Source: Hyphomicrobiales bacterium
GTDB lineage: Bacteria > Pseudomonadota > Alphaproteobacteria > Rhizobiales > Xanthobacteraceae
DNA length: 64,000 nt
NCBI GenBank assembly: GCA_017305715.1
Contig: JAFKKG010000030.1
Span: 3,728 to 67,727, forward strand
Reading direction: 5' to 3'
A program made the position numbers and the translations under genes. The notes beneath the pieces are model-generated. The model was not told the origin of the DNA. It searched no databases and saw only the letters and a program-made list of their open reading frames with translations. The number at the start of each line of letters is the position of its first letter. Positions within the stretch are counted from its first letter, which is position 1. Shown here piece by piece: positions 38,748-58,270 of the stretch.

Positions 38748-39914
38748 ATGGACTTTCAATTCACCGATCGGCAGCGCGAACTCATCGATCACGCCGGTGA
38801 GCACTATCAACGGTCGCTCAAGCAACTGGCTTCCGATCACAGCCGCGAGGGTATCGCGCGGTTGCGCGGCAAGATGGCCGAGGCGGGGCTGCTCGGTCTC
38901 AATATGCCGGAGGAGTATGGCGGGGCCGGCCTGCCTCTTCTCGATACGCTCCTCGTCATCCAGAAGCTGCAATCCTGCGCCTCGATCGTCGGCGCTCTGG
39001 CGCATCGCAGTTCGACCGGGGCGATCGGGGCCATCCTCGAACTTGGGACACCGCAGCAAAAGTCTTTCTTCGTCGGCGGCGTCTGCCGCGGCGAGTTCGG
39101 CGTGAGCATCGGCATCACGGAGCCGGAAGCCGGGTCGGCTGCGACGGCGATGAAAACCGCTGCGCGTCACGACGGCAACGATACCGTCGTGCTGAACGGC
39201 AAGAAGCAGTTCGTCAGCTTCGTCGACCACAACAGCTTCACGCTCACCTATTGCCGTTTCGGCAGCACGGGAAAGCCCGCCGATATCGGAGCGGTGATCG
39301 TGCCGCATGATGCGCCGGGCTTCTCGCACAGCCAGGGCGGGATCAACATGGCGGATGAGAGGCTGTTCGAGCTGTTTTTCGATGACTGCCGCGTGCCCGC
39401 CCAGAATGTGCTTCTGAACGGCAATGCCTTCGGGCGGCTGATCAGCGTCTATAACGCCGAACGACTCGGGAGCATCGCGCGGATGCTCGGATCGGCGCAA
39501 GCCTCGTTCGAACTCGCCGTCGACTACGCGAAAGAGCGGCGTCAGTTCGGCCGCGAGATCGCGGACTTCCAGGGCGTGCAATGGATGCTGGCCGACATGA
39601 AGGTGAAGCTCGAGGCCGCCCAGCTGCTGACCTATCGGGCGGCGTCGAATGCCGGCCACGGCCTGCCGAGCCGCAGCGAGGTCTCGATCGCGAAGGTCTA
39701 TACCGCGCAGGCGGCTCGCGAGATCTGCGACGATGCGCTCCAGATCCATGGCGCCAATGGCTACATGAAGGAATTCCCGCTCGCCCAACGCTACGCCGAA
39801 GTCCGTGGCGGCTCGATCTATGGTGGGACGATCCAGATCCACAAGAACATGATCGCGGGCGATCTGCTGGGCCGCTCGAACAACCAATGGAAGCGCGCCG
39901 AGAAGGCGGGCTGA
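38748..39914 (+). CDS. Acyl-CoA dehydrogenase family protein (motifs resemble the 3-sulfinopropionyl-CoA desulfinase clade)
   Basis: ITEPEAGSAA, RRQFGREIADFQGVQWMLADM, LQIHGANGY; SSTGAIGAI and YNAERLG; IYGGT rather than IYEGT. Confidence 0.85.
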   Translation: MDFQFTDRQRELIDHAGEHYQRSLKQLASDHSREGIARLRGKMAEAGLLGLNMPEEYGGAGLPLLDTLLVIQKLQSCASIVGALAHRSSTGAIGAILELGTPQQKSFFVGGVCRGEFGVSIGITEPEAGSAATAMKTAARHDGNDTVVLNGKKQFVSFVDHNSFTLTYCRFGSTGKPADIGAVIVPHDAPGFSHSQGGINMADERLFELFFDDCRVPAQNVLLNGNAFGRLISVYNAERLGSIARMLGSAQASFELAVDYAKERRQFGREIADFQGVQWMLADMKVKLEAAQLLTYRAASNAGHGLPSRSEVSIAKVYTAQAAREICDDALQIHGANGYMKEFPLAQRYAEVRGGSIYGGTIQIHKNMIAGDLLGRSNNQWKRAEKAG

Positions 39915-39918
39915 CGCC

Positions 39919-41466: not shown

Positions 41467-41473
41467 TGCAAAC

Positions 41474-42856: not shown

Positions 42857-42937
42857 GGGTATGTCCGTCGCCGTGCCTCTGAGAGAAAAATCTGGCGCAT
42901 AGGGAATGCATCTTAGCATATAATGACATTGACGTCG

Positions 42938-42968
42938 ATTGTATCCATGTCCTAATCTTGGATGTATC
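42938..42968. promoter_or_regulatory. Putative MocR operator (site B) between divergent mocR and CoA ligase genes
   Basis: ATTGTATC at 42938 and a second TGTATC 23 bp downstream. Confidence 0.5.
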
Positions 42969-43013
42969 GATCCAGCCTCGGGGGGCTGGGAGGGACAGTA
43001 CGACGGATTGTGG

Positions 43014-44660
43014 ATGGCGGCACCAGGAAATCCCTTTGTCGGCGCAACCTACGGCTCGGCCTTGAGGTGGCTCGCGGATCAATTCGGCCCGCGCGAGGCG
43101 TTGGTCTTCGGAGGCGAGAGATACACGTTTGCCGAGGTGAAACGTCGGGTCGACGAGGCCTCCCGCCGCTTCGAGGCGCTCGGTTTGCGGCCCGGCGATC
43201 GCGTGGCGTTGTGGCTGCCCAATCGGCCGGAATTCCTCTGGTGCTGGCTGGGTGCATCGCAAATCGGCTTGATCACCGTCGTGCTTAATACGCGCCTCAA
43301 GCTGCCGGAGGTCCGCTATCAGCTCGCGCAATCCGATAGTAATGCGCTGATCATTCCGGGTCGCGGTTCATTTCGCGATTTCCCCGCCGAAATTGCCGAA
43401 TTGTGCCCGGAGGTGCGGGTACAGTCGGCGCAAGCTCTGGCGACGGCCGAATTACCCGGACTTCGGCGTATCGTGACGCTCGATACCGGGCTCGGCTGGC
43501 CGGGACTGGTCGAATGGTCGCCATTCGGCCGCGCGACAGAGGCGGCGGCGCCCCCTGCCTATGCGGAAAATCCCAACGAGCCCGCCCTGATTTCCTATAG
43601 CTCCGGGACCACGGCGCTTCCGAAGGGGGCGTTGATTACACATTGCGTGTGGCGCAAGGCTTTCGACATCGGCGAGCGCGCTGATCTCACCTCCGAAGAT
43701 CGCCTTTATCTCTGCATCCCGCTGTTCGGTTCGATGGCGATGATGAATGGTGTCCTGCCGTTTTGGGCCCGCGGTGCGTCGGTCGTTCTCGCGGAACGGT
43801 TCGAGGTGCGCGAATTCCTGCGGGGCGTTTCGCAAGAGCGCTGCACAGCGACGCATTTCCTGCCGCCGATGGTCGAATCGCTCGTCGCCTCGTCCGAGCG
43901 CGCCGATTTCGACCTGTCGCGCCTGCGACTTGGCTGGGTGCTCAGCAGTGAGCGCCGAATTTTGGAATTGGTCGCGCACGATCTTGCCGTTCCCGGCATG
44001 ATGACCGGATACGGCCTCACGGAAACGACGACCGTTCTGACGCGCAACCGGTGGGATGATCCACTCGAGACGCGGATCACGACGCAGGGCTATGCGCTGC
44101 CGGACGTCGAACTGCGTGTCGTCGATCCCGAATCGGGCCGCGATGTCGCGACGGGCGACACAGGGGAGATCTGGGCCCGCGGCTATTGCATCACGCCCGG
44201 CTATTTCAGGAAGCCTGAAGAGAGCAGCAAGGCGCTAACGCCGGACGGATGGTTCAAGACGGGCGATGGCGGCTCGCTGGATGAGACGGGGCGGCTGACG
44301 TTTCGCGGGCGCCTTGGCGACGGTTACAAAAGCCGCGGTTTCAACGTCTCGCCGGCCGAGATCGAAGCCGTGCTCCTCGAGCACGCCGACGTCGAGGCGG
44401 CTGCCGTGGTCGGCGTCGCGCATCCGCGTTGGGGGCAGGTGGGCATCGCCTTCGTGGTCCCAGTCGAAGGCCGCGCTGCGGATCCGGCGGAACTCGCCAA
44501 ATATCTCAAGCCGCGCCTGTCGTCGTTCAAGCTTCCGGAACTGATCACGTGCGTGTCCGAACTCCCGCTGACGGCCGGGACCGGAAAAATCCAGAAATTC
44601 GTTTTGCGGGCGGAGGGAGAGCGTCTGCTCGCCGGCCGGCTGGCCGTCTCGCCGGGATGA
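43014..44660 (+). CDS. Acyl-CoA synthetase (AMP-forming)
   Basis: YSSGTTALPKG, GYGLTET, GEIWARG, WFKTGDGG, GFNVSPAEIE, KIQK. Confidence 0.9.
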   Translation: MAAPGNPFVGATYGSALRWLADQFGPREALVFGGERYTFAEVKRRVDEASRRFEALGLRPGDRVALWLPNRPEFLWCWLGASQIGLITVVLNTRLKLPEVRYQLAQSDSNALIIPGRGSFRDFPAEIAELCPEVRVQSAQALATAELPGLRRIVTLDTGLGWPGLVEWSPFGRATEAAAPPAYAENPNEPALISYSSGTTALPKGALITHCVWRKAFDIGERADLTSEDRLYLCIPLFGSMAMMNGVLPFWARGASVVLAERFEVREFLRGVSQERCTATHFLPPMVESLVASSERADFDLSRLRLGWVLSSERRILELVAHDLAVPGMMTGYGLTETTTVLTRNRWDDPLETRITTQGYALPDVELRVVDPESGRDVATGDTGEIWARGYCITPGYFRKPEESSKALTPDGWFKTGDGGSLDETGRLTFRGRLGDGYKSRGFNVSPAEIEAVLLEHADVEAAAVVGVAHPRWGQVGIAFVVPVEGRAADPAELAKYLKPRLSSFKLPELITCVSELPLTAGTGKIQKFVLRAEGERLLAGRLAVSPG

Positions 44661-44741
44661 GCGAGAAGGCCGAGTTCAACCGAATCGACCGCAGTGTCGG
44701 GAAAAAGCAAACCGGGGCGTAACGCTCGCAAGGAGGGAAGA

Positions 44742-46283
44742 ATGTTCAGTCGCCGCGATTTCGGAGCTGCGATCGGTGCGGCCGCAGTTCTTGGAACGAT
44801 TGGCAGGGCCAATGCGCAATCCAGCCCCAAGCCTGCCGTCGACAAGGACACCCTTGTTATCGCGCTGGAGAAGGAGATTCAGAGTCTCGACGCCCTGGTG
44901 ACAGCCAGCGGCGATTCGCAGCGCTATGCGCTCCAACTGTTCGATTCGCTCTACGGATTCGATCTCAAGGGCCGGACGGTCCCCCGCATGGCGACGGAGG
45001 TGAAGGTCTCCGACGACGGGCTCAGCTATACCTACAAGCTTCGTCCCGGCATTCGCTTTCACAATGGCGATCCGCTGACCTCCGAGGACGTCAAGTTCAC
45101 GATGGAGCGGGTGATCGATCCCGCCGCCAAGAGCACGCGACGGCCGTTCTTCGCGCCGATCATCGCCGGCGTCGAGACGCCCGACCCGTTGACGGTCGTC
45201 TTCAAGCTCAAGCAGTCCGACGGCGCCTTCCTCAACAAGATCGCCGGCTTTCTGTTCATCGTCCCGAAGGCCTACACCAGCGGGTTGCCCAACACGGATG
45301 CCTTTGCCTCTGCGCCTATCGGCTCGGGTCCCTACAAGTTGAAGCGCCACAATATCGGTCAGACGCTCGAGCTGGAGCGGTTCGAGGATTTCTATGGCGA
45401 GAAGCCGGGCGTCAAAAACCTCATCATGAAGATGATCCCCGAGGGATCGACACGCGTGAATGCGCTGCTGACGGGGGAGGTCGATCTCGTCGTGCAGGCG
45501 CCGCTCAACGAAAAGGAACGGCTCAGCAAGACGCCGGGGCTGAAGACGCTGACCAACCCGGTCTCCGCCCCGATGCATGTCAGGCTCTATTCAGACGATG
45601 CCTCCTTGCCGGTCTCCAAGCGCGACGTGCGTCTCGCCCTGAACCACGCTCTTGATTCCAAAGCGATCATCCGCTCGGTTTATTACGGGGTCGGTCAGCC
45701 GATGGGAACGTTCATCTCGGCATTTTACCCTTACGGGTCAGATCCCGACACCAAGCCCTATGCGTACGATCCCAAGAAGGCCCGCGAGCTTCTCAAGAAG
45801 GCGGGCTATCCGGATGGTTTCCAGCTCAAGCTCTACAGCGCCAACGACCATCCCAAGGAATTGGCGGAAGCCATCGCCGCCTATTGGGGCCAGGTCGGCG
45901 TGAAGACCGAAATCCTGCGCATCGACTACGCCGCCTGGAGCCGGCTCAACAATACCCACAAGAGCGGCCCGGCGACGATCACGCAATTCACCAATGCCAT
46001 CTACGATCCGATCCACCCGGTGGCCGGCTCTTTCTCGAAGAACGGGACCTGGTCCAACTACTACAATCCGGAAGTCGAAGCGCTGATCGCGAAGCTTGAT
46101 TCCACGGTCGGTGCCGAGAAACGCGGCGCCGTCTTCCGCGAAATCGGGCGGCTGCTTCACGACGATGCGGCGGCGGTCTTCATCACCGAGCTGTTTCACC
46201 TGTTCAGCCACAAGAATGGGCTGCAATGGAGCATGCAGGAGGGGTCCGGATTCCTGAACCTCCGGCAAGTGTCCTGGTCGTGA
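44742..46283 (+). CDS. ABC substrate-binding protein, family 5, paralog 1 (Tat-like SRRDF signal)
   Basis: FHNGDPLTSEDVKF, IGSGPYK, RLNNTHKSGP; AGGAGG RBS. Confidence 0.9.
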   Translation: MFSRRDFGAAIGAAAVLGTIGRANAQSSPKPAVDKDTLVIALEKEIQSLDALVTASGDSQRYALQLFDSLYGFDLKGRTVPRMATEVKVSDDGLSYTYKLRPGIRFHNGDPLTSEDVKFTMERVIDPAAKSTRRPFFAPIIAGVETPDPLTVVFKLKQSDGAFLNKIAGFLFIVPKAYTSGLPNTDAFASAPIGSGPYKLKRHNIGQTLELERFEDFYGEKPGVKNLIMKMIPEGSTRVNALLTGEVDLVVQAPLNEKERLSKTPGLKTLTNPVSAPMHVRLYSDDASLPVSKRDVRLALNHALDSKAIIRSVYYGVGQPMGTFISAFYPYGSDPDTKPYAYDPKKARELLKKAGYPDGFQLKLYSANDHPKELAEAIAAYWGQVGVKTEILRIDYAAWSRLNNTHKSGPATITQFTNAIYDPIHPVAGSFSKNGTWSNYYNPEVEALIAKLDSTVGAEKRGAVFREIGRLLHDDAAAVFITELFHLFSHKNGLQWSMQEGSGFLNLRQVSWS

Positions 46284-46298
46284 TGCGTTTTGCGCCAA

Positions 46299-46344
46299 AT
46301 TGTCACTAGCATTGTATCGATAAGCTAGATACAATTGACACAAT
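46299..46344. promoter_or_regulatory. Putative MocR operator array (site C)
   Basis: Perfect ATTGTATC-N9-GATACAAT (46311-46335) flanked by ATTGTCAC (46299) and GACACAAT (46337). Confidence 0.65.
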
Positions 46345-46356
46345 CAGAGAGCCAAA

Positions 46357-47160
46357 ATGGCTCTCCAATCGGATGAGACAATGTCAGGGCGGAAACACGG
46401 GCGCGTCGCGCTCATCACCGGTGGCGCCGGTGGCATCGGTTTCGCGACAGCCGAGCGGCTGGCGCGCGACGGCGCCGCAATCGCGATTTGCGATCTCGAC
46501 GGCGCGGCGGCGCAGGAAGCCGCCGCCCGGATCAATGCGAGCCATGGCGTGCCGGCGCGGGGCTATCAGGCCAATGTCGGCGAGCCCGATGCGGTCGAAC
46601 AACTCGTCGCGGAGGTGGTGCGGGAGCTCGGATCGCTCGATATCCTCGTGAACAATGCGGGGGTCACCCGCGACAACCTCGTCCACAAGATGAGCCTGCA
46701 GAACTGGGACGACATCATGTTCGTCCATCTGCGCGGGGCGTTCCTGTGCAGCAGCGCCGCGCAGCGGGTTATGGTGGAGCGCGGCTGGGGGCGGATCGTG
46801 AATCTGTCCTCGACGTCCGCGCTCGGCAATCGCGGTCAGGTCAACTACTCGACGGCCAAGGCGGGCTTGCAGGGCTTCACGCGATCGCTCGCGCTCGAAC
46901 TCGGCCGCTTCGGCGTTACGGTGAACTGCGTCGCACCGGGCTTCATCGACACGGAAATGACACGCAAGACGGCGACGAGGCTCGGAAAAGATCCGGAGGC
47001 CTACAAGGCGGAGCGCGCGAAGGGCATCGCGGTCGGGCGTGTCGGGGTGCCGGCCGACGTCGCCGCCGTGATCGCTTTCCTGGCCGACGACGAGGCGTCC
47101 TACGTGTCCGGCCAGGTCATCTATGTCAGCGGCGGGCCGGAAACCCGTCGCGGCGGCTGA
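46357..47160 (+). CDS. SDR oxidoreductase, FabG-like 3-oxoacyl-CoA/ACP reductase
   Basis: ITGGAGGIG, LVNNAG, NYSTAK, VAPGFIDT; start may be 46381. Confidence 0.88.
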   Translation: MALQSDETMSGRKHGRVALITGGAGGIGFATAERLARDGAAIAICDLDGAAAQEAAARINASHGVPARGYQANVGEPDAVEQLVAEVVRELGSLDILVNNAGVTRDNLVHKMSLQNWDDIMFVHLRGAFLCSSAAQRVMVERGWGRIVNLSSTSALGNRGQVNYSTAKAGLQGFTRSLALELGRFGVTVNCVAPGFIDTEMTRKTATRLGKDPEAYKAERAKGIAVGRVGVPADVAAVIAFLADDEASYVSGQVIYVSGGPETRRGG

Positions 47161-47171
47161 GAGGGGACATC

Positions 47172-48713
47172 ATGACAACCGGCATCGCGCGGCATCTTCG
47201 GACGCTCTCTCTTGTGAGCGTGCTCCTCGCCCCTGTTCCGGCGGCCGCAATCGGCGGCAAGCCGGCCGTCGACCGGGACACGGTCGTCATGGCGGTCAGC
47301 AAGGAGATATTCAATCTCGATGGGCAGGTCACCGCCAGCGGCGATTCCCAACGCTACGGCTGGCAACTCTACGACACGCTCTACGCGCTCGACCGCAACG
47401 GCGACATCGTGCCGAGGCTGGCGGCGGGCATGACCCGGTCCGAGGACGGTCTCACCTATACGTTCACGCTGCGGACCGACGTGAAGTTTCACAATGGCGA
47501 GTTGATGACGGCCGAGGATGTGGCCTACTCGATGGATCGGATTCTCGATCCAGCCGTGAAAAGCACCCGCCGTCCCGCCTTCGCGCCCGTCGTCGCCAAA
47601 TCGGAAGCCAAGGACGCGAAGACGGTCGTCTTCACGCTCAAGGAGCCGGACGGGGCGTTCCTCAACAAGATCGCCGGCTATCTCTTCATCGTGCCCAAGG
47701 CCTATACGCAATCGCTCGGAAGCCCCGAGGCGTTTGCGCGCGCGCCCATCGGCACCGGCCCGTATCGTTTCGTCGAGCAGAAGATCGGCCAGTTCGTCAC
47801 ATTCGAACGCTTCGATGACTACTTTGGTCCGAAACCCGGCATCAAGCGCCTGATCATGCGCCTGATCGAGGAACCCTCGAGCCGGGTGAATGCGCTCCTG
47901 ACAGGCGAAGTCGATCTGAGCGACGGCATTCCGACCGCCGAGATCGAGCGGCTCAAGAAGACGCCCGGCCTCACGGTCCATTCCGTCCCGATCGGGAGCC
48001 CGCTCGGGGTTCGCCTCTACGCCAACGATCCGTCGCTGCCGATCTCGAAGGCGAAGGTGCGGCTTGCCTTCAACTACGCCATCGACGCCAACGCCTTGAT
48101 CAAGAACGTGCTGCACGGCGCCGGGGCGCCGCTCACGAGCTATATCTCGTCCTACTATTCCTATGGCGTGAACCGCGACCTCAAGCCCTACGGCTACAAT
48201 CCCGGCAAGGCGAAACAACTGCTGAAAGAGGCCGGCTATCCCAACGGCTTCGAGATCTCGATCTATTCGTCGAGTGATTGGCCGAAGGAGATCGCCGAGA
48301 CATTGGCCGCCTATTGGTCCCAGGTCGGCGTCAAGGCGAAGATTCAAAGGATCGACTACGCGGCCTGGAGCCGGCTCAACAACACCCACAAGAGCGGGCC
48401 GATGACCTTGATGCAGATGTCGAACGCCATCTTCGACCCGATCCATCCGGTGACGGGTGGGGCGAGCAAGGCCGGCACCTGGTCCGACTACTCGAATCCC
48501 GAGATCGAAGAGCTCATCCTCGAGGCGAACAAGACCGCCGACCGGTCCGAACGCGATCGGGTCTTCAAGCGGATCGGCGCGATCCTGCACGAGGATGCGC
48601 AGGCCGTGCTGATCACCGAGATATTCTATGTCTACGGCGCCGACAGCGCGTTGGATTGGGCGCCCCAGCCGGGCATCGCCTGGTACGACCTGCGCACGAT
48701 CCGCTGGAAGTGA
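47172..48713 (+). CDS. ABC substrate-binding protein, family 5, paralog 2
   Basis: FHNGELMTAEDV, IGTGPYRF, RLNNTHKSGP; GAGGGG RBS. Confidence 0.9.
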   Translation: MTTGIARHLRTLSLVSVLLAPVPAAAIGGKPAVDRDTVVMAVSKEIFNLDGQVTASGDSQRYGWQLYDTLYALDRNGDIVPRLAAGMTRSEDGLTYTFTLRTDVKFHNGELMTAEDVAYSMDRILDPAVKSTRRPAFAPVVAKSEAKDAKTVVFTLKEPDGAFLNKIAGYLFIVPKAYTQSLGSPEAFARAPIGTGPYRFVEQKIGQFVTFERFDDYFGPKPGIKRLIMRLIEEPSSRVNALLTGEVDLSDGIPTAEIERLKKTPGLTVHSVPIGSPLGVRLYANDPSLPISKAKVRLAFNYAIDANALIKNVLHGAGAPLTSYISSYYSYGVNRDLKPYGYNPGKAKQLLKEAGYPNGFEISIYSSSDWPKEIAETLAAYWSQVGVKAKIQRIDYAAWSRLNNTHKSGPMTLMQMSNAIFDPIHPVTGGASKAGTWSDYSNPEIEELILEANKTADRSERDRVFKRIGAILHEDAQAVLITEIFYVYGADSALDWAPQPGIAWYDLRTIRWK

Positions 48714-48738
48714 TGGGTATCGAAGGCGAGATGCGGCC

Positions 48739-49656
48739 ATGCTCCGCTACCTGACACTCCGGATCGCGCAGTCGATCGTGACGGTGCTGCTGGTCACGAT
48801 GATCATCTTCGTGATCATCCGCCTGATCGGCGATCCGACCCATCTGATGCTGCCTCCCGAGGCGACGGAGGCGGATCGTGAGTTGCTGCGCCAGCAGATG
48901 GGCCTCTCCGATCCGGTCGCGGTCCAGTACTGGCGCTATCTGCTGCAATTGCTCCACGGCGATATGGGGATGTCCTATCGCTTCAGCCTGCCGGCGCTCG
49001 ATGTCGTGCTGGGGCGGATCGGTCCGACGCTTCTGCTCACGTGCACCTCGCTCGCGATCGGAATCCTGGTCGGCGTGCCGCTGGGTGTCGCCTCGGCCGT
49101 TCGCCCCGACGGCTGGATCGATTTTGTCGCCAAGGCGATCGCCCTGTTCGGACAGGCGGCGCCGCCCTTCTTCTTCGGGCTGATCTTCGTGCTTGTCTTC
49201 GCCGTTCAGCTCCGCTGGCTGCCGACGAGCGGCTATGGCGGTCCGCAATATCTCATTATGCCGGCGATCGCGCTCGGATGGTATTCCGCCGCCGGTCTGA
49301 TGCGGCTGACGCGTTCCAACATGATGGAGGTGCTCACCTCCGAATACGTCAGGATGGCCCGCATCAAGGGCGTGCCCGAGCGGGTCGTCGTATACAAGCA
49401 CGCGCTCAAGAACGCGGCGCTCCCGGTTCTCACCTTCGCCTCGCTCCAGTTCGGCATCCTGATGGGCGGCGCGGTATCGATCGAGTCCGTTTTCGCCTGG
49501 CCGGGAATGGGCAAGCTCATCCTCGATTCGATCGCCAATCTCGATTACGCGGTCGTTCAGGCGGCGGTGACCGTTTCCGCCCTGATGTTCACCGCGATCA
49601 ATCTCGCGGTGGATCTCCTCTACGCCTATATCGACCCGCGTATCCGCTATGCGTGA
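48739..49656 (+). CDS. ABC permease, DppB-like
   Basis: IGDPT, RLTRSNMMEVL..EYVRMARIKG, ESVFAWPGMG. Confidence 0.9.
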   Translation: MLRYLTLRIAQSIVTVLLVTMIIFVIIRLIGDPTHLMLPPEATEADRELLRQQMGLSDPVAVQYWRYLLQLLHGDMGMSYRFSLPALDVVLGRIGPTLLLTCTSLAIGILVGVPLGVASAVRPDGWIDFVAKAIALFGQAAPPFFFGLIFVLVFAVQLRWLPTSGYGGPQYLIMPAIALGWYSAAGLMRLTRSNMMEVLTSEYVRMARIKGVPERVVVYKHALKNAALPVLTFASLQFGILMGGAVSIESVFAWPGMGKLILDSIANLDYAVVQAAVTVSALMFTAINLAVDLLYAYIDPRIRYA

Positions 49657-50560
49657 CGCCCCCTCGCCAGACCGACCGGTCCTGCAGCGGACGGGCGCGA
49701 AGGATCGCACGCTTGCGGCGAGCGCGTCGGAGCGCTCCTCGCGCTGGCTCGCATCGCTGCAGATCTGGGTCGCAATCATCCTCCTTGCCATCGTCTTCGG
49801 CTCAGCATTGCTGGCCGCCTTCGTGACGCCTTACGATCCGAACGAGATCGGCCTCGACAAGGCCCTTCAGGCTCCCTCCGTGCAGCATTGGTTCGGGACC
49901 GATCAACTCGGACGCGATGTCCTGTCGCGGGTGATCTGGGGCGGACAGGTCTCGCTGTTCCTTGCCGCCTGCGCGGTCGCGCTCGCGGGAGCTTTCGGCA
50001 CGCTTCTCGGCCTCGTCGCGGGCTATTTCGGCGGTGCCGTCGACAGGGCGGTGATGTGGATCGCCGACGTGCAGTTTTCGCTGCCGGCCGTCATTCTTGC
50101 GCTCGTCCTGGTCGGCGCCGTCGGCCCGAGTTTCACCAACATCGTCGTTGTCCTCAGCCTCGCCAACTGGGCGCGTTTCGCGCGCGTCATCCGCTCCGAA
50201 GCGCTCTCGCTCAAGAGCCGCGATTTCGTGTTGTTGGCCAAGCTCGGAGGGGCATCGCCGCTCAGGATCATCGCCTATCACATCCTGCCGAACGTGCTCG
50301 GCACCTTCATCGTCCTTGCGACGCTGGATGTCGGCCTGATCATTATCCTGGAAGCCACGCTGTCCTTCCTCGGGCTCGGCGTGCAGCCGCCCGATCCCTC
50401 CTGGGGCACCATGATCGCAGACGGTCGCGGCTATCTCGAAAGAGCCTGGTGGATTTCCGTGTTCCCCGGTCTTGCACTCATGGCGACCGTGCTGTCCGGC
50501 AATCTGCTGGGCGATGCGCTGCGCGACAGGCTCAATCCCAGCCAAAGGCGGAGATGGTAG
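49649..50560 (+). CDS. ABC permease, DppC-like
   Basis: HWFGTDQLGRDVLSR, EATLSFLGLG, WGTMIADGR. Confidence 0.9.
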   Translation: MRDAPSPDRPVLQRTGAKDRTLAASASERSSRWLASLQIWVAIILLAIVFGSALLAAFVTPYDPNEIGLDKALQAPSVQHWFGTDQLGRDVLSRVIWGGQVSLFLAACAVALAGAFGTLLGLVAGYFGGAVDRAVMWIADVQFSLPAVILALVLVGAVGPSFTNIVVVLSLANWARFARVIRSEALSLKSRDFVLLAKLGGASPLRIIAYHILPNVLGTFIVLATLDVGLIIILEATLSFLGLGVQPPDPSWGTMIADGRGYLERAWWISVFPGLALMATVLSGNLLGDALRDRLNPSQRRRW

Positions 50561-50562
50561 GA

Positions 50563-51543
50563 ATGAGCGATCTCCTCCGCGTCGAGAATCTGACCACCTG
50601 GCTCGCCACCGAGTCCGGCATCATCACGGCTGTCGACGATGTGAGTTTCTCCGTTCGGCCCGGCCGCGCATTGGCGCTTGTCGGCGAATCCGGCTCCGGC
50701 AAGAGCATGACCTGCTCTTCCATCATGCGTCTTTTGCCCGCCAGTGGGCATATCGCCGGCGGCCGCGTGCTGTTCGAGGGGGAGGATCTCCTGGCCAAGA
50801 GCCCGGCCGAGATGGAGGCCATTCGCGGCCGCAAGATCGGCATGATCGTGCAGGATCCGATGACCTCGCTCAACCCGCTCTTTGACGTCGAGGATCAGGT
50901 CGGAGAGGTCTTCAGATATCACCTTGGCGATCGCTCGCGTCGCGCCCGACGGCCGAAGGTCCTGGACGTGCTGTCGCGTGTGCAGATTCCGGCCGCGGAG
51001 AAGCGCCTCGGATCCTATCCGCACGAATTTTCGGGCGGCATGCGCCAGCGCGTCGCGATTGCGCTCAACATCGCCTGCGCGCCGAAACTCCTGATCGCGG
51101 ACGAGCCGACGACTGCGCTCGACGTGACGGTGCAGCAGCAGATTTTGGCCCTGCTTCGCGATCTCCAGCGCGAGACCGGGATGGCGATCATTCTCGTGAC
51201 GCACGACCTGCACACGGTGCAACGCTTCTGCGACGAGGTCGCGATCATGTATGCCGGCCGGATCGTCGAGCAGGGGCCGGTGGCCGAGATCTTCGCGCGG
51301 CCGGCCCATCCTTATACGGAGGGACTTCTGCGAGCGCTGCCTCAGCTCGGGGGGCAGGAAGATCGCCTGCCGTTGATCCCCGGCCAGCCTCCGTCGCTGG
51401 CGTCGCTTCCTGCCGGGTGCAGGTTCGCGCCTCGCTGCCGGCGCGCGACCGATTTGTGCCGGACGGAATACCCCGACTGGATGGCAACGGCCGGCGAGAC
51501 ACGCCGCTCGGCCTGCTGGTACGCCGATGAGGTGCTCGGATGA
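50563..51543 (+). CDS. ABC ATP-binding protein, DppD-like
   Basis: GESGSGKS, FSGGMRQR, HPYT, GCRFAPRC. Confidence 0.92.
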   Translation: MSDLLRVENLTTWLATESGIITAVDDVSFSVRPGRALALVGESGSGKSMTCSSIMRLLPASGHIAGGRVLFEGEDLLAKSPAEMEAIRGRKIGMIVQDPMTSLNPLFDVEDQVGEVFRYHLGDRSRRARRPKVLDVLSRVQIPAAEKRLGSYPHEFSGGMRQRVAIALNIACAPKLLIADEPTTALDVTVQQQILALLRDLQRETGMAIILVTHDLHTVQRFCDEVAIMYAGRIVEQGPVAEIFARPAHPYTEGLLRALPQLGGQEDRLPLIPGQPPSLASLPAGCRFAPRCRRATDLCRTEYPDWMATAGETRRSACWYADEVLG

Positions 51544-52517
51544 GCGCTTTTCTCTCGGTACGGGACTTACGAAAGACGTTTCCGGTCTCCCGCGGCCTGT
51601 TCGGGAAGCCGGAGCTCTTGCACGCTGTCGCCGGGGTTTCGTTCGACGTGCCCGCCGGAACGACCTTCGGTCTCGTCGGCGAATCCGGTTCCGGCAAGAC
51701 CACGATCGCGAAAATGGTCATGGCAGCCGACGAGCCGACGTCGGGCGGGATCGTCATCGACGGCAGCGACATCGCCACGCACGGCAAGGCCGAACGTTTC
51801 GCCTTCCGGCGTCTCCTGCAGCCGGTGCTCCAGGATCCCTACAGCGCGCTCAGTCCGCGCATGCGAGTCGATCGCATCATCGACGAGCCGCTGCGGATTC
51901 ATCGCACCTATTCGAGCAAGGCGGCGCGCGCCGAACGGGTCGCCTACCTGCTCGACGCGGTCGGGCTGCCAGCGAGTGCGGCGCAGCGCTATCCGAACGA
52001 GATGTCGGGTGGGCAGCGCCAGCGCGTGGCGATCGCTCGGGCTCTCGCGCTTGAACCACGCCTTCTTGTTCTGGACGAACCGGTTTCGGCGCTCGACGTG
52101 TCGATTCAGGCCCAGATCCTGAACCTGCTTCGCGACCTGCAGGACCGGCTCGGTCTGACCTTCCTGCTGATTTCGCACGATCTCGCCGTCATCGGCTTCA
52201 TGAGCACGCAGGTTGGCGTGCTCTATCTGGGAAGATTCGTCGAAGTCGGCTCGAAAGAGACGATCCTTTCCGACGCGCGGCATCCCTACACCCTGGCTCT
52301 GATTGCCTCCGCCGTGCCCGAAGCCGACGCCGCCCCGGTTACCGGGGAGATACCCTCGCCTTTGTCCCCGCCATCGGGCTGCGTGTTTCACACCCGCTGT
52401 CCCGTTGCCACCGATCGCTGCCGCCAGGAGGTGCCATCCCTGCGCCAGTTGAAGCCCAACCACCTCGTTGCCTGCCATTTCGCGGAAACAACCCGCAAGG
52501 AGACCCGTAATGCTTGA
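51540..52517 (+). CDS. ABC ATP-binding protein, DppF-like
   Basis: GESGSGKT, MSGGQRQR, HPYT, GCVFHTRC. Confidence 0.92.
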   Translation: MSAFLSVRDLRKTFPVSRGLFGKPELLHAVAGVSFDVPAGTTFGLVGESGSGKTTIAKMVMAADEPTSGGIVIDGSDIATHGKAERFAFRRLLQPVLQDPYSALSPRMRVDRIIDEPLRIHRTYSSKAARAERVAYLLDAVGLPASAAQRYPNEMSGGQRQRVAIARALALEPRLLVLDEPVSALDVSIQAQILNLLRDLQDRLGLTFLLISHDLAVIGFMSTQVGVLYLGRFVEVGSKETILSDARHPYTLALIASAVPEADAAPVTGEIPSPLSPPSGCVFHTRCPVATDRCRQEVPSLRQLKPNHLVACHFAETTRKETRNA

Positions 52518-53703
52518 AAGGAATCGACTCATGGAACGCCCGATTGATCCGGAAGCAGCCCTGCATACCGCGGACATGAAGGCGCTGCGCGAACTCGCGA
52601 TCACCAAGTTTCGCGAACGCGGGCGCGGCTACGATGCCAATTGCGACATGCCGGTCGAGAACATCGAGGAGCTTCACCGGGGCGGATGGCTGCGCACCAC
52701 GCTGTCGAAGGAGCGCGGAGGTCGCGGCAGCAATCTCGATACCGACGATCCGGCGACATATCTGCAGGCTCAGCGTAGCATTGCGCAGGGTTGTCCCGGC
52801 ACCGCACATTGTTATCAGGTGACCAACCACACCGCCTGGTGTCTGGAAGCCATCGGCACAAAGAGCCAGAAGGAGCGCTACCTTGACCCGATGCGGGAGC
52901 GCTCGTTCCTGGGTTCGTTCGTTGGCAGCGAAGCCAAGCGCAAGCACATGTACATGATGAATACGACCGCCAAGAAGGTCGATGGCGGATGGGTCATCAA
53001 CGGCGAGAAGAACTACGCCACCAATGCGCCGACGATGGCCTTCGCGATCATCTTCGTCGCCCTCGAAGGAACCGAGGACTACAACCAAAATCACCAGATG
53101 ATCATCATCGAGCCCGGTATGAAGGGCGTCTCGATGGATCACACCTGGTATCGGCCGAACGGGATGCGGGCGACGCCATCCTCGATCATCACGCTCGACA
53201 ACGTATTTGTGACGGAAGACCAACTCCTCGGCGAGCCGGGCGCCTATCCGCGTCAGCGCTGGCAGGGGAAATTCCATCTCGGTTTCGCGGCGACCTATCT
53301 GGGCGCGACCGAGGGCATGTACGAATGGTACCTCGATTACGTTCGCAAGCGCGGCCGTGGCCGGGACGGCATCGTCCAGATGCGAACCGGCGAAATGAAG
53401 ATTCAGCTCGAAGCGGCGCGGGCGATTTTTCATCACGCCATCACGTGCTGGAAGACGAAACCGGTCGTTGAGGCGGAGCTTGCGTCCATGGCGGCCAAAT
53501 CGACGATTGCGCATGTCGCCTTCGAGCTCTCCCACAAGATCATCCACGCCGCCGGATCGACCGCGCTGTTCGACGAGTTCCCGCTCAGCCGCTATCTGCG
53601 CGATTTGGAAACCCACGTGCTGCACGCGGGACACGACCGGACGTCGCAAATCATAGGGCTGTCGGAGCTGGGAGAAAGCTTCGATTCGACCCTGCAGCGC
53701 TGA
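52510..53703 (+). CDS. Acyl-CoA dehydrogenase-fold protein, probably a DszC/SfnB-like flavin-dependent monooxygenase
   Basis: NGEKNYATNA, W...GMRATPS, GSTAL, LSRYLRD..THVLH; lacks the QF(G)...FQ and GGxG CoA/FAD motifs of true dehydrogenases; start may be 52531. Confidence 0.7.
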   Translation: MLERNRLMERPIDPEAALHTADMKALRELAITKFRERGRGYDANCDMPVENIEELHRGGWLRTTLSKERGGRGSNLDTDDPATYLQAQRSIAQGCPGTAHCYQVTNHTAWCLEAIGTKSQKERYLDPMRERSFLGSFVGSEAKRKHMYMMNTTAKKVDGGWVINGEKNYATNAPTMAFAIIFVALEGTEDYNQNHQMIIIEPGMKGVSMDHTWYRPNGMRATPSSIITLDNVFVTEDQLLGEPGAYPRQRWQGKFHLGFAATYLGATEGMYEWYLDYVRKRGRGRDGIVQMRTGEMKIQLEAARAIFHHAITCWKTKPVVEAELASMAAKSTIAHVAFELSHKIIHAAGSTALFDEFPLSRYLRDLETHVLHAGHDRTSQIIGLSELGESFDSTLQR

Positions 53704-53712
53704 CCACGTCGA

Positions 53713-53738
53713 GCGGAGGCGGATCACGCCGCCTCCGC
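53713..53738. other. Intercistronic GC-rich hairpin
   Basis: Perfect 10-bp stem GCGGAGGCGG-N6-CCGCCTCCGC with no U-tract. Confidence 0.55.
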
Positions 53739-53822
53739 AACATCCGCTGCAACTGAAAGGCTCGGCACCGCGACGATCGTCGCGGATTCGCCGGGTGGTC
53801 CATCGGGGAGGTTTGCCGGAAG

Positions 53823-54881
53823 ATGCGAAAACTCGAACTGGGCTGGTTCATTCCCACGCAAGGCGATACGACGGCTTACGGCGATCCGGGTGCATCCGTG
53901 CCGCCATCGATCGATGCTTTCGACCGCGTGTCGCTCAGTGCGGAGCGCGCTGGTTTCGAGTACCTGCTGATTCCGGTCAACGTCCATTGCTGGGAAGCCT
54001 GGATCACAGGCGCGATGATGGCGGCCCGAACCAAATCGATCAAGCCGCTCATCGCGGCCCGGCCCGGCTACATCAATCCCGTGCTGCTGGCAAAGATGAT
54101 CTCGACATTCGATCAACTCACCGGCGGACGGATCTGCATCAATCTGATCGCCGGTCTGAGCGACGAGCAATATGCCGCCGACGGGCTGCCCTACAGCAAA
54201 AACGACCGCTATCTGCTGATGGATGAGGAAGTCAGCATCCTCAAGGCCCTATGGAAGGCCGACGGGCCAATCGACTACAACGGTCAATTCTACAAGCTCA
54301 AGGGCGTTCAGGTCATCCCGCCGGTCCTTCAGAAGCCGTATCCGAAATTCTATCTGGGAGGCGGCTCGAAGGAAGCTTGGGAGATCTCGGCCAAGCATGC
54401 GGACGTCCATCTCTTCTGGGGCGACCACCCGGATCGGGTGGCCGAGAATATGAGCCAGATTCGACAACGCGCGGCAACGTACGGGCGGGCCGCCGAGATC
54501 GGCTTCGGCATGCGCCTGCAGATCATCTGCCGCGAGCGCGAGGAGGACGCCTGGGCGGCCGCCGACCAACTCATTCGTCACGCGGATGCGGAATTCCGCA
54601 AGGATGTCGCCGGCCGTTTCCAGAATTCGGTGGCGAACAGCCGGATGCAGGAACTCTCCAGCCAGGACCTTATCATCCCCCATCTGTGGACCGGCATCAC
54701 CAAAGTGCGTCCCGGTGCAGGCATCGCAGTCGTCGGCGATCCCCGGCAGTGCGCCGACACGCTGCAGAAGTTCATCGACATCGGCTGCCATTCATTCTGC
54801 CTGTCGGGCTATCTCCACGACGAGGAGGCGGAGCGCTTTGGCCGCATGGTGCTGCCGCTGCTGAGGGCGAAGAACGCATAG
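53823..54881 (+). CDS. Luciferase-like monooxygenase, SsuD (alkanesulfonate monooxygenase)-like
   Basis: WFIPTQGD, LIP...CWEAW, RPG, YLGGGS, LWTGITKVRPGAGIAVVG, LSGY.HDEEA all parallel SsuD motifs. Confidence 0.82.
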   Translation: MRKLELGWFIPTQGDTTAYGDPGASVPPSIDAFDRVSLSAERAGFEYLLIPVNVHCWEAWITGAMMAARTKSIKPLIAARPGYINPVLLAKMISTFDQLTGGRICINLIAGLSDEQYAADGLPYSKNDRYLLMDEEVSILKALWKADGPIDYNGQFYKLKGVQVIPPVLQKPYPKFYLGGGSKEAWEISAKHADVHLFWGDHPDRVAENMSQIRQRAATYGRAAEIGFGMRLQIICREREEDAWAAADQLIRHADAEFRKDVAGRFQNSVANSRMQELSSQDLIIPHLWTGITKVRPGAGIAVVGDPRQCADTLQKFIDIGCHSFCLSGYLHDEEAERFGRMVLPLLRAKNA

Positions 54882-54931
54882 TCATTTTGTCGGCGAGAAT
54901 TCAAGCCAACCGCAGTATGTGAGGAACGACG

Positions 54932-56482
54932 ATGTGGGTGAATAAACATGGACCGCGCGTCGCGATCGCTGCGCTCGCTCTCGTCTGTGCCATGCTCGGC
55001 GCTACGCCGTCGATCGCGATTGGCGGGAAGCCGGCAGCCGACAAGGGCACCATCATCATCGCTATCGGCCGAGATATCGCGATGCTCGACGCACAGGTCG
55101 ACAATACCGGGAATTCCGACCGCTATGCCTGGCAGATGTTCGATAATCTCTACACGTTCGACAAGCAGGGCAAGCTGATCCCTCAGGTCGCCAGGGATGT
55201 GAAGGTTTCCGACGACGGTCTCGACTATCGATTTTCCATCCGGCAGGACGTCATCTTTCACAACGGCGCCAAATTGACGGCCGAAGACGTGAAGTTCTCC
55301 TTCGACCGAATCCTGGACCCGGCAACCAAGAGCACGCGGCGGCCTTATTTTTCCGACATCATCGACCGGGTCGAGGTCATTGATCCCGCGACCGTCAACG
55401 TCAAGCTCAGGCAGCGCGACGTGGTCTTCATGAACAAGGTGGCGGCTTTCGTCGCCCTGGTGCCGAAGGCGTATGTGGAGTCGCTGCCGTCCGCCGAGGC
55501 TTTCGCCAGGGCGCCGGTCGGCGCTGGGCCCTACAAGCTTGTCTCGCACAAGATTGGACAATCTCTCGAACTCGAGCGTCACGACGCCTATTACGGCGCC
55601 AAGCCGGCGATCAAGCGTTTGGTTTTTCGGTACATCCCCGACGCATCAAGCCGCCTCAACGCGATGCGTGCCGGCGAGGTCGATATGGCCGACATGATCG
55701 CACCGAGCGACGTGAAGCAGATCAAAGAATCGGCCGGGGTATCGGTTGTGCTCGTACCGGCCGGGAGTCCGCTGCACATTCGTCTCTATTCGAGCGTGCC
55801 GAACACGCCGCTGGCCGACAAACGCGTGCGCCTTGCGTTGAACTACGCGATTGACGTCGATGCCATCATCAAGCATGTGCAACATGGCATCGGCAAGCCT
55901 CTGACGTCCTTCATCTCGGCCTACTATCCGGTGGGCGTCGATCCCGATCTGAAGCCCTATCCATTCGATCCGAAGCTGGCGCGTAAGCTTCTCGCCGACG
56001 CGGGCTATCCACGCGGCTTCGAGACCGAACTGCTGAGCCCGAATTCCTATCCGAAGGATGTCACCGACGCGGTCGCCGGCTACTGGCAGGCCATCGGCGT
56101 GCGGGCAAAGACCAAAGTGCTGGACTATCCAGCGTGGAATCGGCTCAACAACACGCACGCGTCCGGGCCGATGACCGTTATGCAATATTCGAACGCGATC
56201 TATGATCCGATCACCGCGATCTTCGGTACCGCAGCCAAGAAGGGCACCTGGTCGGACTATAGCAATCCCGAAGTCGATGCGCTGATCGAACAGACCAACT
56301 CGGTCGAGGATCCGGCCGAGCGCGACAAGCTGTTCCGCAAGATCGCACGCATCATGCGCGATGACGGGCATGCCGTTCTGATTTCGGAGCTGTTCTCCGT
56401 TTTTGCGATGGACAGCCAGATCGAATGGGTGCCTCAACAGGGTTACGCGTTCTACGACCTGCGCACCATCCATTGGAAATGA
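54932..56482 (+). CDS. ABC substrate-binding protein, family 5, paralog 3
   Basis: FHNGAKLTAEDVKF, VGAGPYK, RLNNTHASGP. Confidence 0.9.
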   Translation: MWVNKHGPRVAIAALALVCAMLGATPSIAIGGKPAADKGTIIIAIGRDIAMLDAQVDNTGNSDRYAWQMFDNLYTFDKQGKLIPQVARDVKVSDDGLDYRFSIRQDVIFHNGAKLTAEDVKFSFDRILDPATKSTRRPYFSDIIDRVEVIDPATVNVKLRQRDVVFMNKVAAFVALVPKAYVESLPSAEAFARAPVGAGPYKLVSHKIGQSLELERHDAYYGAKPAIKRLVFRYIPDASSRLNAMRAGEVDMADMIAPSDVKQIKESAGVSVVLVPAGSPLHIRLYSSVPNTPLADKRVRLALNYAIDVDAIIKHVQHGIGKPLTSFISAYYPVGVDPDLKPYPFDPKLARKLLADAGYPRGFETELLSPNSYPKDVTDAVAGYWQAIGVRAKTKVLDYPAWNRLNNTHASGPMTVMQYSNAIYDPITAIFGTAAKKGTWSDYSNPEVDALIEQTNSVEDPAERDKLFRKIARIMRDDGHAVLISELFSVFAMDSQIEWVPQQGYAFYDLRTIHWK

Positions 56483-56516
56483 TGTCCATCAGCCGAATGG
56501 TCGGCCGTTTCCCATG

Positions 56517-56600
56517 GACCGGCGGCGCCAGGGAAAATCCAGGTAGGCTTGCTGCCGCGTTCCCGATCCGCCTGTTGGGAGCGTAACCAAGCGGTAAGGC
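56517..56600 (+). pseudogene. Decayed copy of the tRNA-Gln leader and 5' half (att-like direct repeat of 14361-14445)
   Basis: Core 56555-56600 equals 14401-14445 apart from one inserted A and one G>A; weaker similarity extends upstream to GACCGGCGG at 56517/14361. Confidence 0.88.
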
Positions 56601-56608
56601 TGCGAAGG

Positions 56609-58270
56609 TCATCCAGCCGCTACAGAATTGTCCCGTACGAGAGCCGATATCCACGACCCCAATGCCGCGGCGATTTCCAGGCGTGACCGCTCGGTATCAT
56701 CGGCAACAGTCCTGGCAACGTGGCCGTCCGGGCGGACCAGCATGGCGCCGCTTCCGGACAGGCCGCATGTCTTCAACCAGTCCGTTTCGAAAACGTAACC
56801 ATCGTTCAGATTGACGAATTTTACCCCATAGGGAGCGACGACGTCCCCTTGCCAGCGCGAAGCTTCCGTGCGGGTGAACAGCGTGAACGACACTGGATCG
56901 ACCAGGTCGAGCGTTGATATTCGGCGACCGCGATGGGTCACCCAGGCATGGGGCATGCGATCCCCCGGGTTCGCCGACGGATCGTACCGCGTAGGTTCGG
57001 CAGGCCCGCGAACGGGAGGACCGTACGAATAACCGAGCTGCAGTCCGGGGCTGAGAAAATGCTCGCGGTGTGTCGAGATTTCGGAACCAAGTGCGGTCCG
57101 GCCAGCATCGCTCACCGTTCCCCCGATGATCGATTGCTCGGCCAGACGAAACAGGTCTGGCAGCCGGTTCGAATTGTGCAAACTCTGCCGACAGTTGTTC
57201 TCGGCGATGGGTCGGCGTTCTTCGTCATAGCTGTCGAGTATGGCTGATGCTGCTGCGTTGCGCAGCGCCAAGGCCATCTTCCAGGCGAGGTTATGCGCGT
57301 CAGCAATCCCGGTATTGAGTCCCAGGCCACCGGTCGGTGGAAAGCGATGCGCGGCGTCGCCGACCAGAAAGCAGTTGCCCCGGCGATACGCAGTAGCAAC
57401 CTGGGCCGCCATCATCCAGGGCACGACATGCTTGACCTGAAGCTCAACGTCGCGGACGCCAATGGCGTTTCGGATCAGCGTTGCGCAATGTTCATCGGTG
57501 TAGACCGCCCGGTCGAATATTTGCGGCATTGCCCGCGGCGTGTAGACCCACGTGCGGTCGATATCATAGGCGATGAAGGTGCCTGCAACCGACGGGTCGA
57601 GTATCCAGTACAGGATGGCCGGTCGGTCCCGGAGCAACGCACGAAGGTTTGCTTCGAAATGAATGGTAATGCGCGGCCGTACTGACGGATTGCCGTCGAG
57701 CGGAATGGCGAGGAATTCCCGCACCGCGCTATTCGCGCCATCCGCGGCTATCAGGAAGGTGCTCTTGATCTGATATTTCGAGCCATGCGACTGAATTGTC
57801 GATATGGCTCCGCCGTCTTCGAGACGACATCCGACCCAGTCATGTTCGGTCCGAAGTTCGATTGCCGCATTCTTCTCGGCCGCGGCGCGCAGGATGGCCT
57901 CGAATTTCGGTTGCGCCAGGTTCAGTAGCGGTGTTGGAGTGGCCTGGACCGCACTGGCTTCGGGCGTATCCAGCGGTATCTTGCCAAGTTCGATCCCCGC
58001 CAGGGTCGTCATGAAGCGCGAATACTCCTGGTCGCCGCGAGGGGGGCCGGCTGACCGCATCATGTCGACATCGATATCGAGCGATCGCAGGATCTCGAGC
58101 GAGCGCGGATTCACGACGTGCGCCTTTGGCGCGCTGTCGGCTCTCGTTGGCCGCCGTTCCACGACGACCGAAGGAATGTTCTGTCGCGCCAGCAACAGCG
58201 CCATTGTCAGCCCGACCGGACCGCCGCCAACGATCAGAACGGGGATATCGGCCTGCTGATCAAATATCAT
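56609..58270 (-). CDS. FAD-dependent monooxygenase (TfdB/2,4-dichlorophenol hydroxylase- or RdmE-like group A)
   Basis: IVGGGPVGL, LIAADGANS, LVGDAAHRFPPTGGLGLNTGIADAHNLAWK, PGDRMPH, LVRPDGHV. Confidence 0.88.
   Translation of the reverse strand: MIFDQQADIPVLIVGGGPVGLTMALLLARQNIPSVVVERRPTRADSAPKAHVVNPRSLEILRSLDIDVDMMRSAGPPRGDQEYSRFMTTLAGIELGKIPLDTPEASAVQATPTPLLNLAQPKFEAILRAAAEKNAAIELRTEHDWVGCRLEDGGAISTIQSHGSKYQIKSTFLIAADGANSAVREFLAIPLDGNPSVRPRITIHFEANLRALLRDRPAILYWILDPSVAGTFIAYDIDRTWVYTPRAMPQIFDRAVYTDEHCATLIRNAIGVRDVELQVKHVVPWMMAAQVATAYRRGNCFLVGDAAHRFPPTGGLGLNTGIADAHNLAWKMALALRNAAASAILDSYDEERRPIAENNCRQSLHNSNRLPDLFRLAEQSIIGGTVSDAGRTALGSEISTHREHFLSPGLQLGYSYGPPVRGPAEPTRYDPSANPGDRMPHAWVTHRGRRISTLDLVDPVSFTLFTRTEASRWQGDVVAPYGVKFVNLNDGYVFETDWLKTCGLSGSGAMLVRPDGHVARTVADDTERSRLEIAAALGSWISALVRDNSVAAG

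Follow-up and report, generated by a model that had tools for sequence, protein, structure and literature searches.

Direct repeats of the 3′ part of a tRNA gene, which delimit genomic islands, prophages and ICEs distally, were reportedly surveyed by Williams in 2002, and the anticodon loop is said to be one of the sublocations distinguished there ('class I'). A different geometry was reportedly described in the same year by Zhao and Williams (said to have appeared in J Bacteriol 184:859; PMC1635311 and PMC6563490 both contain its title) for Mesorhizobium loti, where an integrative element shows reversed target-gene orientation; the displaced 5′ piece is said to keep the host upstream flank, and the intact gene to receive the element's promoter. 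Genomes also contain tRNA pseudogene fragments, junction scars of tandem duplications or illegitimate joins, and remodelled joints with filler DNA. In the tRNA-dependent lysogeny of actinobacteriophages (Guerrero-Bustamante and Hatfull 2024), the tRNA gene can be left unrebuilt if a same-isotype copy is available, and the system comprises an integrase, an attachment core of ~10 bp, both host-gene halves at the prophage ends and a spare tRNA inside the element (PMC10865867).

Here, we have analysed a stretch of 64,000 nucleotides (the window; bases 3728-67727 of contig C16, 128.5 kb, in a genome of 7.45 Mb and 51 contigs) in which the 5′ part of a tRNA-Gln(UUG) gene recurs, together with its leader, far downstream of the intact gene. 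It is probable (about 0.72) that 56496-56604 represents a dead, neutrally drifting partial copy of the lineage's own tRNA-Gln(UUG) transcription unit, which forms a scar between two separately acquired blocks and probably derives from a former second tRNA-Gln unit. The interpretation of the copy as a working attachment site is not supported. Its exact derivation is one that we infer from sequence.

Extent and position of the copy

A genome-wide blastn search with 14250-14560 as query returned a single significant second match, in which 14340-14449 is paired with 56496-56604 (90/113 identities, 7 gap columns, E 2e-18). It contains a core, 14401-14445 versus 56555-56600, that aligns over 46 columns with one mismatch and one indel (95.7% identity, E 8e-12) and includes a 25-nt perfect block; the two changes in the copy are one extra A and one G>A, as a first-pass annotation of this DNA had described. 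The weaker similarity that the annotation had placed over a further 40 bp upstream is real (56496-56553 exceeds shuffles, p 0.0015), although at ~58 nt it is a little longer than stated, and the distal part 56496-56554 as a whole is ~72% identical to 14340-14400. Both ends of the repeat are sharp. Upstream of the left end, homology is not above shuffles (p 0.55). On the right, weak homology past the core reaches 56604, corresponding to tRNA position 28-30, in a global alignment; neither blastn nor the global alignment gave any homology in the copy to tRNA positions 31-75, and residual homology between 56601-56720 and the tRNA 3′ half is not above shuffles (p 0.35). Within the tRNA-Gln unit, the repeat begins inside the -35 box of the promoter and ends at tRNA position 28-30.

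The two copies share the + strand and are separated by 42.1 kb. The left one belongs to the intact gene, which agrees with the earlier description of a duplicated 5′ end and leader. The partial copy is located in a gap of 126 nt (56483-56608) between two convergent genes (Table 1). As had been noted, it fills most of this gap; the core ends 8 nt, rather than 9 bp, from the hydroxylase stop codon.

Table 1. Coordinates of the features discussed, as positions in the window
Feature	Position	Strand	Basis
Putative promoter, TTGAAA ... TATAGA boxes	14336..14364	+	Conserved in congeners
Source-side copy, -35 box to tRNA position 28	14340..14449	+	blastn and global alignment
Leader with strong hairpin	14365..14421	+	Folding; strain comparison
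Intact tRNA-Gln(UUG)	14422..14496	+	ARAGORN
Proximal part of the interval, separate module(s)	14523..30079		Synteny
Left accessory block: organosulfur and acyl-CoA catabolism genes, three SBP_bac_5 genes	30080..56494		Shared with G067
SBP_bac_5 solute-binding protein (SBP) gene, last of the left block	54932..56482	+	Pfam PF00496, E 2.4e-83
Decayed promoter and distal leader of the partial copy	56496..56554	+	Alignment
Core of the partial copy (tRNA positions 1-24 preceded by 21 nt of proximal leader)	56555..56600	+	blastn
FAD-dependent aromatic-ring hydroxylase (FAD_binding_3), first of the right block	56609..58270	-	Pfam PF01494 and PF21274

The resident tRNA-Gln(UUG) locus

The intact tRNA-Gln(UUG) is the only tRNA that ARAGORN called in the window. 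A tRNA search found this gene in single copy in the 51-contig genome, with a tRNA-Gln(CUG) on another contig, and tRNA search and blastn revealed neither a second tRNA-Gln(UUG) nor a separate 3′ half elsewhere in the genome.

In all eight aligned congeners, GGTTGAAATG and CTATAGACCGGC are kept before tRNA-Gln, whereas the sequence further upstream differs: conservation starts at GGTTGAAATG and includes CTATAGACCGGC, followed by a variable leader of ~60 nt and then the tRNA. The two conserved boxes presumably constitute the tRNA-Gln promoter, which a simple sigma-70 consensus scan did not call. Native 14340-14421 folds at -44 kcal/mol (z -3.85), and none of 200 shuffles was equally stable. A very stable hairpin, GGGAAUCCGGGCGGG...CCUGCCCGCGUUCCC, lies at 14374-14410 between the promoter and the mature 5′ end; its sequence varies among species, and the structure may serve in processing or regulation.

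The gene upstream of tRNA-Gln, an acyl-CoA dehydrogenase gene (12279-14111, - strand), is its neighbour in all congeners examined. With this genus-wide neighbour in place, a promoter of its own, a complete tRNA and a conserved 3′ flank of ~25 nt, the resident locus is, by these comparisons, in an unrecombined state.

Some further features were observed around the resident locus. A palindromic REP-like repeat of ~60 bp (14274-14333; TGTTTG.GCATGATC..GGAAAACCG...TTCCGGATC..GCTCTAGCC) abuts the tRNA-Gln promoter upstream. It also occurs at 10873-11072 and 1173-1372, with dozens of copies in the genome, and is found in the same place in G016 while missing there in other congeners. In G002, G005, G008 and G019, the DNA upstream of the acyl-CoA dehydrogenase/tRNA-Gln pair matches the end of contig C15 (119900-132500). 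Contig C16:1-14764 (to 11037 in the window) holds ~14.7 kb of non-syntenic DNA in that upstream position, which means that the tRNA-Gln locus is variable on both sides.

Occurrence of the joint in public data

The joint that holds the copy is found in assemblies of at least nine independent studies and is therefore not a misassembly; the first-pass annotation had named misassembly as a possible refutation, which did not materialise. An exact-protein look-up located the arrangement of SBP gene, 126 nt and hydroxylase gene in seven Logan assemblies from one bioreactor study, and k-mer searches and contigs placed the joint in algae/protist, marine-sediment, synthetic-community, soil and several isolate-labelled runs. 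One public contig of 30 kb spans it at 98.6% identity. The same strains have the native locus and its downstream DNA in common. To judge from this occurrence, the copy is fixed in the species and old.

Two strain types, ~1.4% apart, were seen in these data, and the organism is present at low depth in many unrelated runs (55500-57800, 13600-15600). The sources of the runs include bioreactors, algal and protist cultures, marine sediment, soil, cold seep and mouse gut as well as isolate-labelled material, a distribution typical of a widespread water- or reagent-associated bacterium.

Decay of the copy

The expression signals of the unit have not been preserved in the copy. A 5-nt gap removes GTTGA, and the -35 box is lost with it; the -10 box reads CCATGGAC versus CTATAGAC in the native locus, and two positions are changed relative to the boxes conserved in the genus. 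The hairpin is degraded, and the 21 nt adjoining the tRNA are unchanged. Within the 126-nt gap, no promoter- or terminator-like site was called, and the folding of the two strands is no more stable than that of shuffles (z -1.0 and -0.04). By these signs, the copy has lost its -35 box and carries an altered -10 box, with no promoter-like site called in the scan. ARAGORN called no tRNA at the copy, and Rfam gave no match at E<=1. Its truncation at position 28-30 rules out cloverleaf formation and fits the description of a non-functional tRNA remnant.

Divergence was compared between the two strain types seen in public runs, with small counts throughout. The 126-nt gap has 6 differences in 126 sites. 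The flanking coding sequence has 26 in 2175 (Fisher p 0.007 versus the gap), the third codon positions of the flanking genes 15 in 725 (p 0.11 versus the gap), and the native leader with the 5′ tRNA 0 in 110 (p 0.014 versus the gap); over 14286-14445, the native locus shows no difference from the second strain type. The two haplotypes of the copy differ at 56526, 56530, 56532, 56540, 56544 and 56580, with five of the six differences falling in 56526-56544. As far as these small counts go, the copy is evolving without purifying selection and no slower than third codon positions. Since no promoter, terminator, Rfam match or folding signal was found and the copy drifts neutrally, it would have no sequence-dependent function today. 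Terminator, small RNA and promoter were considered as roles for the copy and rejected, as folding, site scans and Rfam gave no support.

The decay is uneven. The core carries 2 changes in 46 columns versus 17 in 62 in the distal part (p 0.002), a contrast that uniform neutral decay does not predict. Occasional gene conversion by the native gene may have preserved the core. The contrast may also reflect fast evolution of the native distal leader, which is highly divergent among species, or the distal part may have decayed under selection for silencing a strong tRNA promoter aimed into the 3′ end of the convergent hydroxylase gene.

Composition of the 42-kb interval and the flanking blocks

All genes scanned are metabolic, transport or regulatory (dehydrogenases, monooxygenases, ABC transport parts and regulators); an SDR gene and a gene for an ABC binding protein lie next to the tRNA. 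The neighbours of the hydroxylase in the right block are Peripla_BP_6, SnoaL_4, Glyoxalase, FAA_hydrolase, LysR, GntR and RidA genes. No match to a tyrosine or serine recombinase (PF00589, PF00239) was obtained across the 128-kb contig, and nine tyrosine-recombinase genes are present on other contigs. No multicopy IS-like repeat was found within the interval.

Different parts of this DNA have different relatives. The segment 30080-56494 shows 86-90% DNA identity to G067:C8:54503-80121 of another species. The homologous stretch there is embedded in a large accessory region, and the 120 kb examined contain no tRNA. This homology stops at 56494, 12 nt past the SBP stop codon, and the copy begins at 56496; the G067 block contains no such tRNA-Gln piece. 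A comparison of breakpoints with relatives, as the first-pass annotation had proposed, has thus yielded one informative genome, G067, in which synteny breaks 1-2 nt from the left edge of the repeat. Nothing convincing in the way of terminal repeats was seen at the ends of the block, either here or in G067. In the proximal part, 15024-27698 has a counterpart in G119 that is retained as one unit at 72-76%; the 3.2 kb remaining on that G119 contig contain no tRNA. Relative to the closest tRNA-Gln loci, those of G016 and G299, synteny stops ~25 nt past the tRNA.

The right block has no close copy in 300 congeners. A diverged copy of its operon (56-78% at the amino acid level) is present elsewhere in G299 with no tRNA nearby, and the nearest hydroxylases outside the genus in a GTDB-wide protein scan are 54-57% identical. 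Its G+C content is lower (0.59-0.60), the drop beginning ~3 kb before the copy, inside the left block. Judged by gene content and synteny, the 42-kb interval is a mosaic of metabolic modules with different histories, not one recognisable element.

The last gene of the proximal part is YeiH-like (PF03601). This gene (28838-29983) lies immediately left of the shared 26-kb block, and in G067 a 69%-identical YeiH-family gene (G067:C8:53480-54493) lies immediately right of the same block. Such a placement resembles a circular permutation of the block plus yeiH, and it may be a coincidence.

Several searches concerned earlier states of the region. The DNA after tRNA-Gln in G299 matches contig C1 at 224.9-230.8 kb, where there is no tRNA remnant, and the DNA after tRNA-Gln in G019, G008 and G002 is a different conserved sequence, and the island-free state of this lineage is not reconstructable from the congener flanks compared. 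No intermediate arrangement was present in the 300-genome genus samples, the GTDB-wide protein scan or JGI metagenomes (leader 21-mer, 0 matches); these searches gave neither a genome with a full second copy behind the SBP gene nor one with the joint but without the patch.

tRNA-Gln as an integration hotspot in the genus

Repeats of the 3′ half of tRNA-Gln are frequent in the genus, with 11 in 8 of 24 congeners and two more in G299, and no other 5′-only piece was found in 40 relatives searched. The statement of the first-pass annotation that islands typically duplicate the tRNA 3′ end thus holds for this genus, in which tRNA-Gln is, on the evidence of these repeats, an integration hotspot. In the two repeats read directly, identity starts at tRNA position 27 (G002) and 29 (G008; mismatch at 31), which makes them sites of the anticodon-loop type.

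In these two genomes, inserts of 8.7 kb (G002, L013-L014, C1:2888113-2896848) and 7.2 kb (G008, L011, C1:6256706-6263911) lie within perfect 3′-half repeats. Judged by eye, neither has a recognisable integrase; the G008 insert contains a GroEL paralogue, and the G002 insert radical-SAM-like and GDSL-like genes. They look like decayed islands whose repeats have outlasted the integrase. ORFs adjoining tRNA-Gln in G002, G005, G008, G016, G019 and G067 likewise include no integrase as far as reading of the sequences can tell, and were read as P450, permease, IS630-like transposase, GroEL, radical-SAM protein and restriction enzyme.

Two other loci were also observed. In G005 (L001-L004), tRNA-Gln(UUG) is present as two complete, directly oriented genes (C1:1957529-1957603 and 1999975-2000049) at a distance of 42.5 kb. 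The first has a promoter and leader of the genus type and the second an unrelated leader, and the gene content between them is unrelated to that of the 42-kb interval studied here. Short 'tttggaaat' motifs follow the second copy and also occur beside the att junctions of G002 and G008. In G010 (L048, C14, about 555-686, - strand), the canonical tRNA-Gln lacks 26 nt (positions 44-69) between two CCGCC repeats, ARAGORN calls no tRNA at the locus, and a 3′ tRNA-like piece is found near the end of contig C23; this may be a real deletion or a MAG assembly error.

Origin of the copy

The leader of the copy is closer to the native leader of its own genome than to those of seven congeners. The 21 nt beside the tRNA are identical to the native ones, and G016, the nearest relative, differs at 4 of the 21. 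This comparison with the leaders of other species, proposed in the first-pass annotation, points to the lineage's own locus as the probable source, or else to the locus of a very close relative. Of the suggestion that the piece is a relic of a donor's tRNA locus, the relic has stood and the distant donor has not.

In the preferred reading, the variable region downstream of the gene would once have carried a second tRNA-Gln unit at its far end. This unit could have arisen by direct (tandem) duplication of a 42-kb segment starting at the promoter or by re-entry of a circle carrying the gene, and the twin full tRNA-Gln genes of G005, 42.5 kb apart, would provide a precedent. In a second step, this unit would have lost everything 3′ of the anticodon stem when the right block joined, at the apparent crossover point of the tRNA-Gln-specific integrases of the genus. 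A priori, it is unlikely that a duplication was followed by a deletion ending in the same short intergenic gap. Alternatively, a 110-bp piece may have been captured in one step as filler at an illegitimate joint of the two blocks. A further route would start from the same second unit, whether duplicated or re-entered, and attribute the truncation to a non-restoring site-specific insertion of the right block; the preferred route and one-step capture, taken together, are ranked above it.

The two edges of the copy bear on these routes. At the left edge, the terminal CAGCC of the block shares 4-5 nt (AGCC[G]) with TAGCCG, which directly precedes the -35 box in the native locus; this is weak evidence that the left joint may have been microhomology-mediated, with subsequent loss of 5 nt. 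The right edge lies at the anticodon stem/loop border. Because the copy ends at position 28-30 and the 3′-half repeats of the genus start at 27-29 in the two genomes read directly, the one is the complement of the other; such a match could be a coincidence, expected in ~1 of 10 cases.

Simpler mechanisms were considered as well. Retro-insertion of a tRNA precursor is ruled out because the copy includes promoter boxes upstream of any transcript start. Campbell-type single-crossover insertion of a circle bearing only the 110-bp piece would put the intact gene on the right. In the reversed-orientation model of Zhao and Williams, the displaced 5′ piece would keep the host flank, whereas the copy is preceded by an accessory block, and tRNA-dependent lysogeny needs both halves at the ends, an integrase and a spare tRNA inside the element (PMC10865867). 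These last three models are excluded since the resident gene is in its native context and accessory DNA borders the copy on either side.

Alternative explanations

It is unlikely, although conceivable, that the truncation resulted from non-restoring site-specific integration, in which a complete second tRNA-Gln behind the SBP gene was hit by an element sharing a short anticodon-loop core. The right block would then be the remnant of this element, with the 3′ half displaced and the gene left unrebuilt, a state that would be tolerable because the resident upstream gene still supplied tRNA-Gln. Integration that leaves the target gene unrebuilt, with an element-borne or spare tRNA, is documented (PMC10865867), the copy ends at the anticodon stem/loop border in a mirror image of the congener repeats, and the right block has a lower G+C content and is missing from the 300 congeners. 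However, the second complete gene is hypothetical, the contig contains no integrase or remnant of one, no displaced 3′ half is present in the genome and no tRNA lies further right on the contig, and the G+C drop starts inside the left block rather than at the copy. In addition, the hydroxylase stop codon is so close to the core that there is no room for an attachment arm. The related proposal of the first-pass annotation, a 5′-targeting element that runs to the right beyond the window, finds no support either: a search for an integrase (128-kb contig) and for a second tRNA-Gln(UUG) or its 3′ half (genome), which had been suggested as a check, gave none, and the intact gene keeps its genus-wide upstream neighbour.

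The idea that a fragment of the tRNA-Gln locus of a different strain or species was imported together with one of the blocks is rather improbable. The copy does lie exactly at the end of a block that is also found in another species, and homology starts where the genus-wide conserved unit starts, as if the upstream flank of the donor differed. Nevertheless, the block in G067 carries no such fragment, and no donor was found in the 300 congeners, JGI metagenomes or public runs. Moreover, the donor must be a very close relative, since the proximal leader is identical to that of the copy's own genome and unlike that of every sampled congener.

We regard as highly improbable a live or latent att pair from which an integrase encoded elsewhere excises a 42-kb circle with the only tRNA-Gln(UUG), leaving a broken gene behind; such a circle and broken gene had been envisaged in the first-pass annotation. 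The direct orientation, the 25-nt perfect block in the core, the nine tyrosine-recombinase genes on other contigs and the use of tRNA-Gln as an integration site in the genus are all compatible with such a pair. On the other hand, the shared half is the tRNA half missing from the att repeats of the genus; these repeats start roughly at the end point of the copy, so that the copy lacks the usual crossover site. The copy drifts neutrally, contains an indel and exists as two haplotypes. The interval combines parts with different histories, no mobility gene was found across the 128 kb, and excision would take out an essential single-copy tRNA. Still slimmer is the prospect that the copy is an unrecombined partner site at which a recombinase encoded in trans loops out the 42-kb module with the only tRNA-Gln(UUG). 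If this were true, a cell losing the circle would die, which would amount to a 'tRNA hostage' type of island addiction with a 5′-half geometry.

Chance similarity or an assembly artefact, which only the short length of the repeat would favour, can practically be dismissed in view of the genome-wide E value and the independent studies that include contigs spanning the joint.

Significance and comparison with known systems

The partial copy adds one more fossil to the record of the tRNA-Gln(UUG) locus as a recombination hotspot in this genus, and it matters little as it stands. Two points of note are that a 5′ half with its promoter is rarely seen and that it ends where the 3′ repeats of the genus begin. 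The copy also pinpoints, with single-base precision, where two accessory metabolic modules meet. It carries a caution for island-finding software, in that a tRNA-derived direct repeat at a distance of 42 kb can bound a non-mobile region. If an intermediate genome were found, the locus could show how accessory blocks are stitched together without mobility genes beside tRNA genes.

In comparison with classical 3′ att repeats, the locus is alike in the target gene, which is that of the genus, in direct orientation, in the position of a partial copy tens of kb downstream and in the break at the anticodon stem/loop. It differs in that the duplicated part is the promoter, leader and 5′ part (positions 1 to ~30), decayed with an indel, and, unlike classical islands, neither the segment nor the contig has an integrase and the interval looks like a mosaic rather than one element.

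With the reversed element of M. loti, the locus shares a duplicated or displaced 5′ portion of a tRNA gene in a rhizobial-type genome; here, however, the intact gene keeps the genus-wide flank and the conserved boxes, the piece lies between accessory blocks, and an integrase is missing. The logic of tRNA-dependent lysogeny is what the integrase-linked route would need, but this locus lacks both an integrase and a 3′ remnant, and its intact gene is the resident copy.

The resemblance to junction scars and filler DNA is that of a partial, non-functional and neutral piece at a joint of different histories, possibly with a microhomology of 4-5 nt. Random filler need neither end at a tRNA position relevant to recombinases nor lie on the same strand as its source 42 kb away, whereas this copy does both. 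Overall, the copy belongs with the known tRNA gene remnants at recombination scars.
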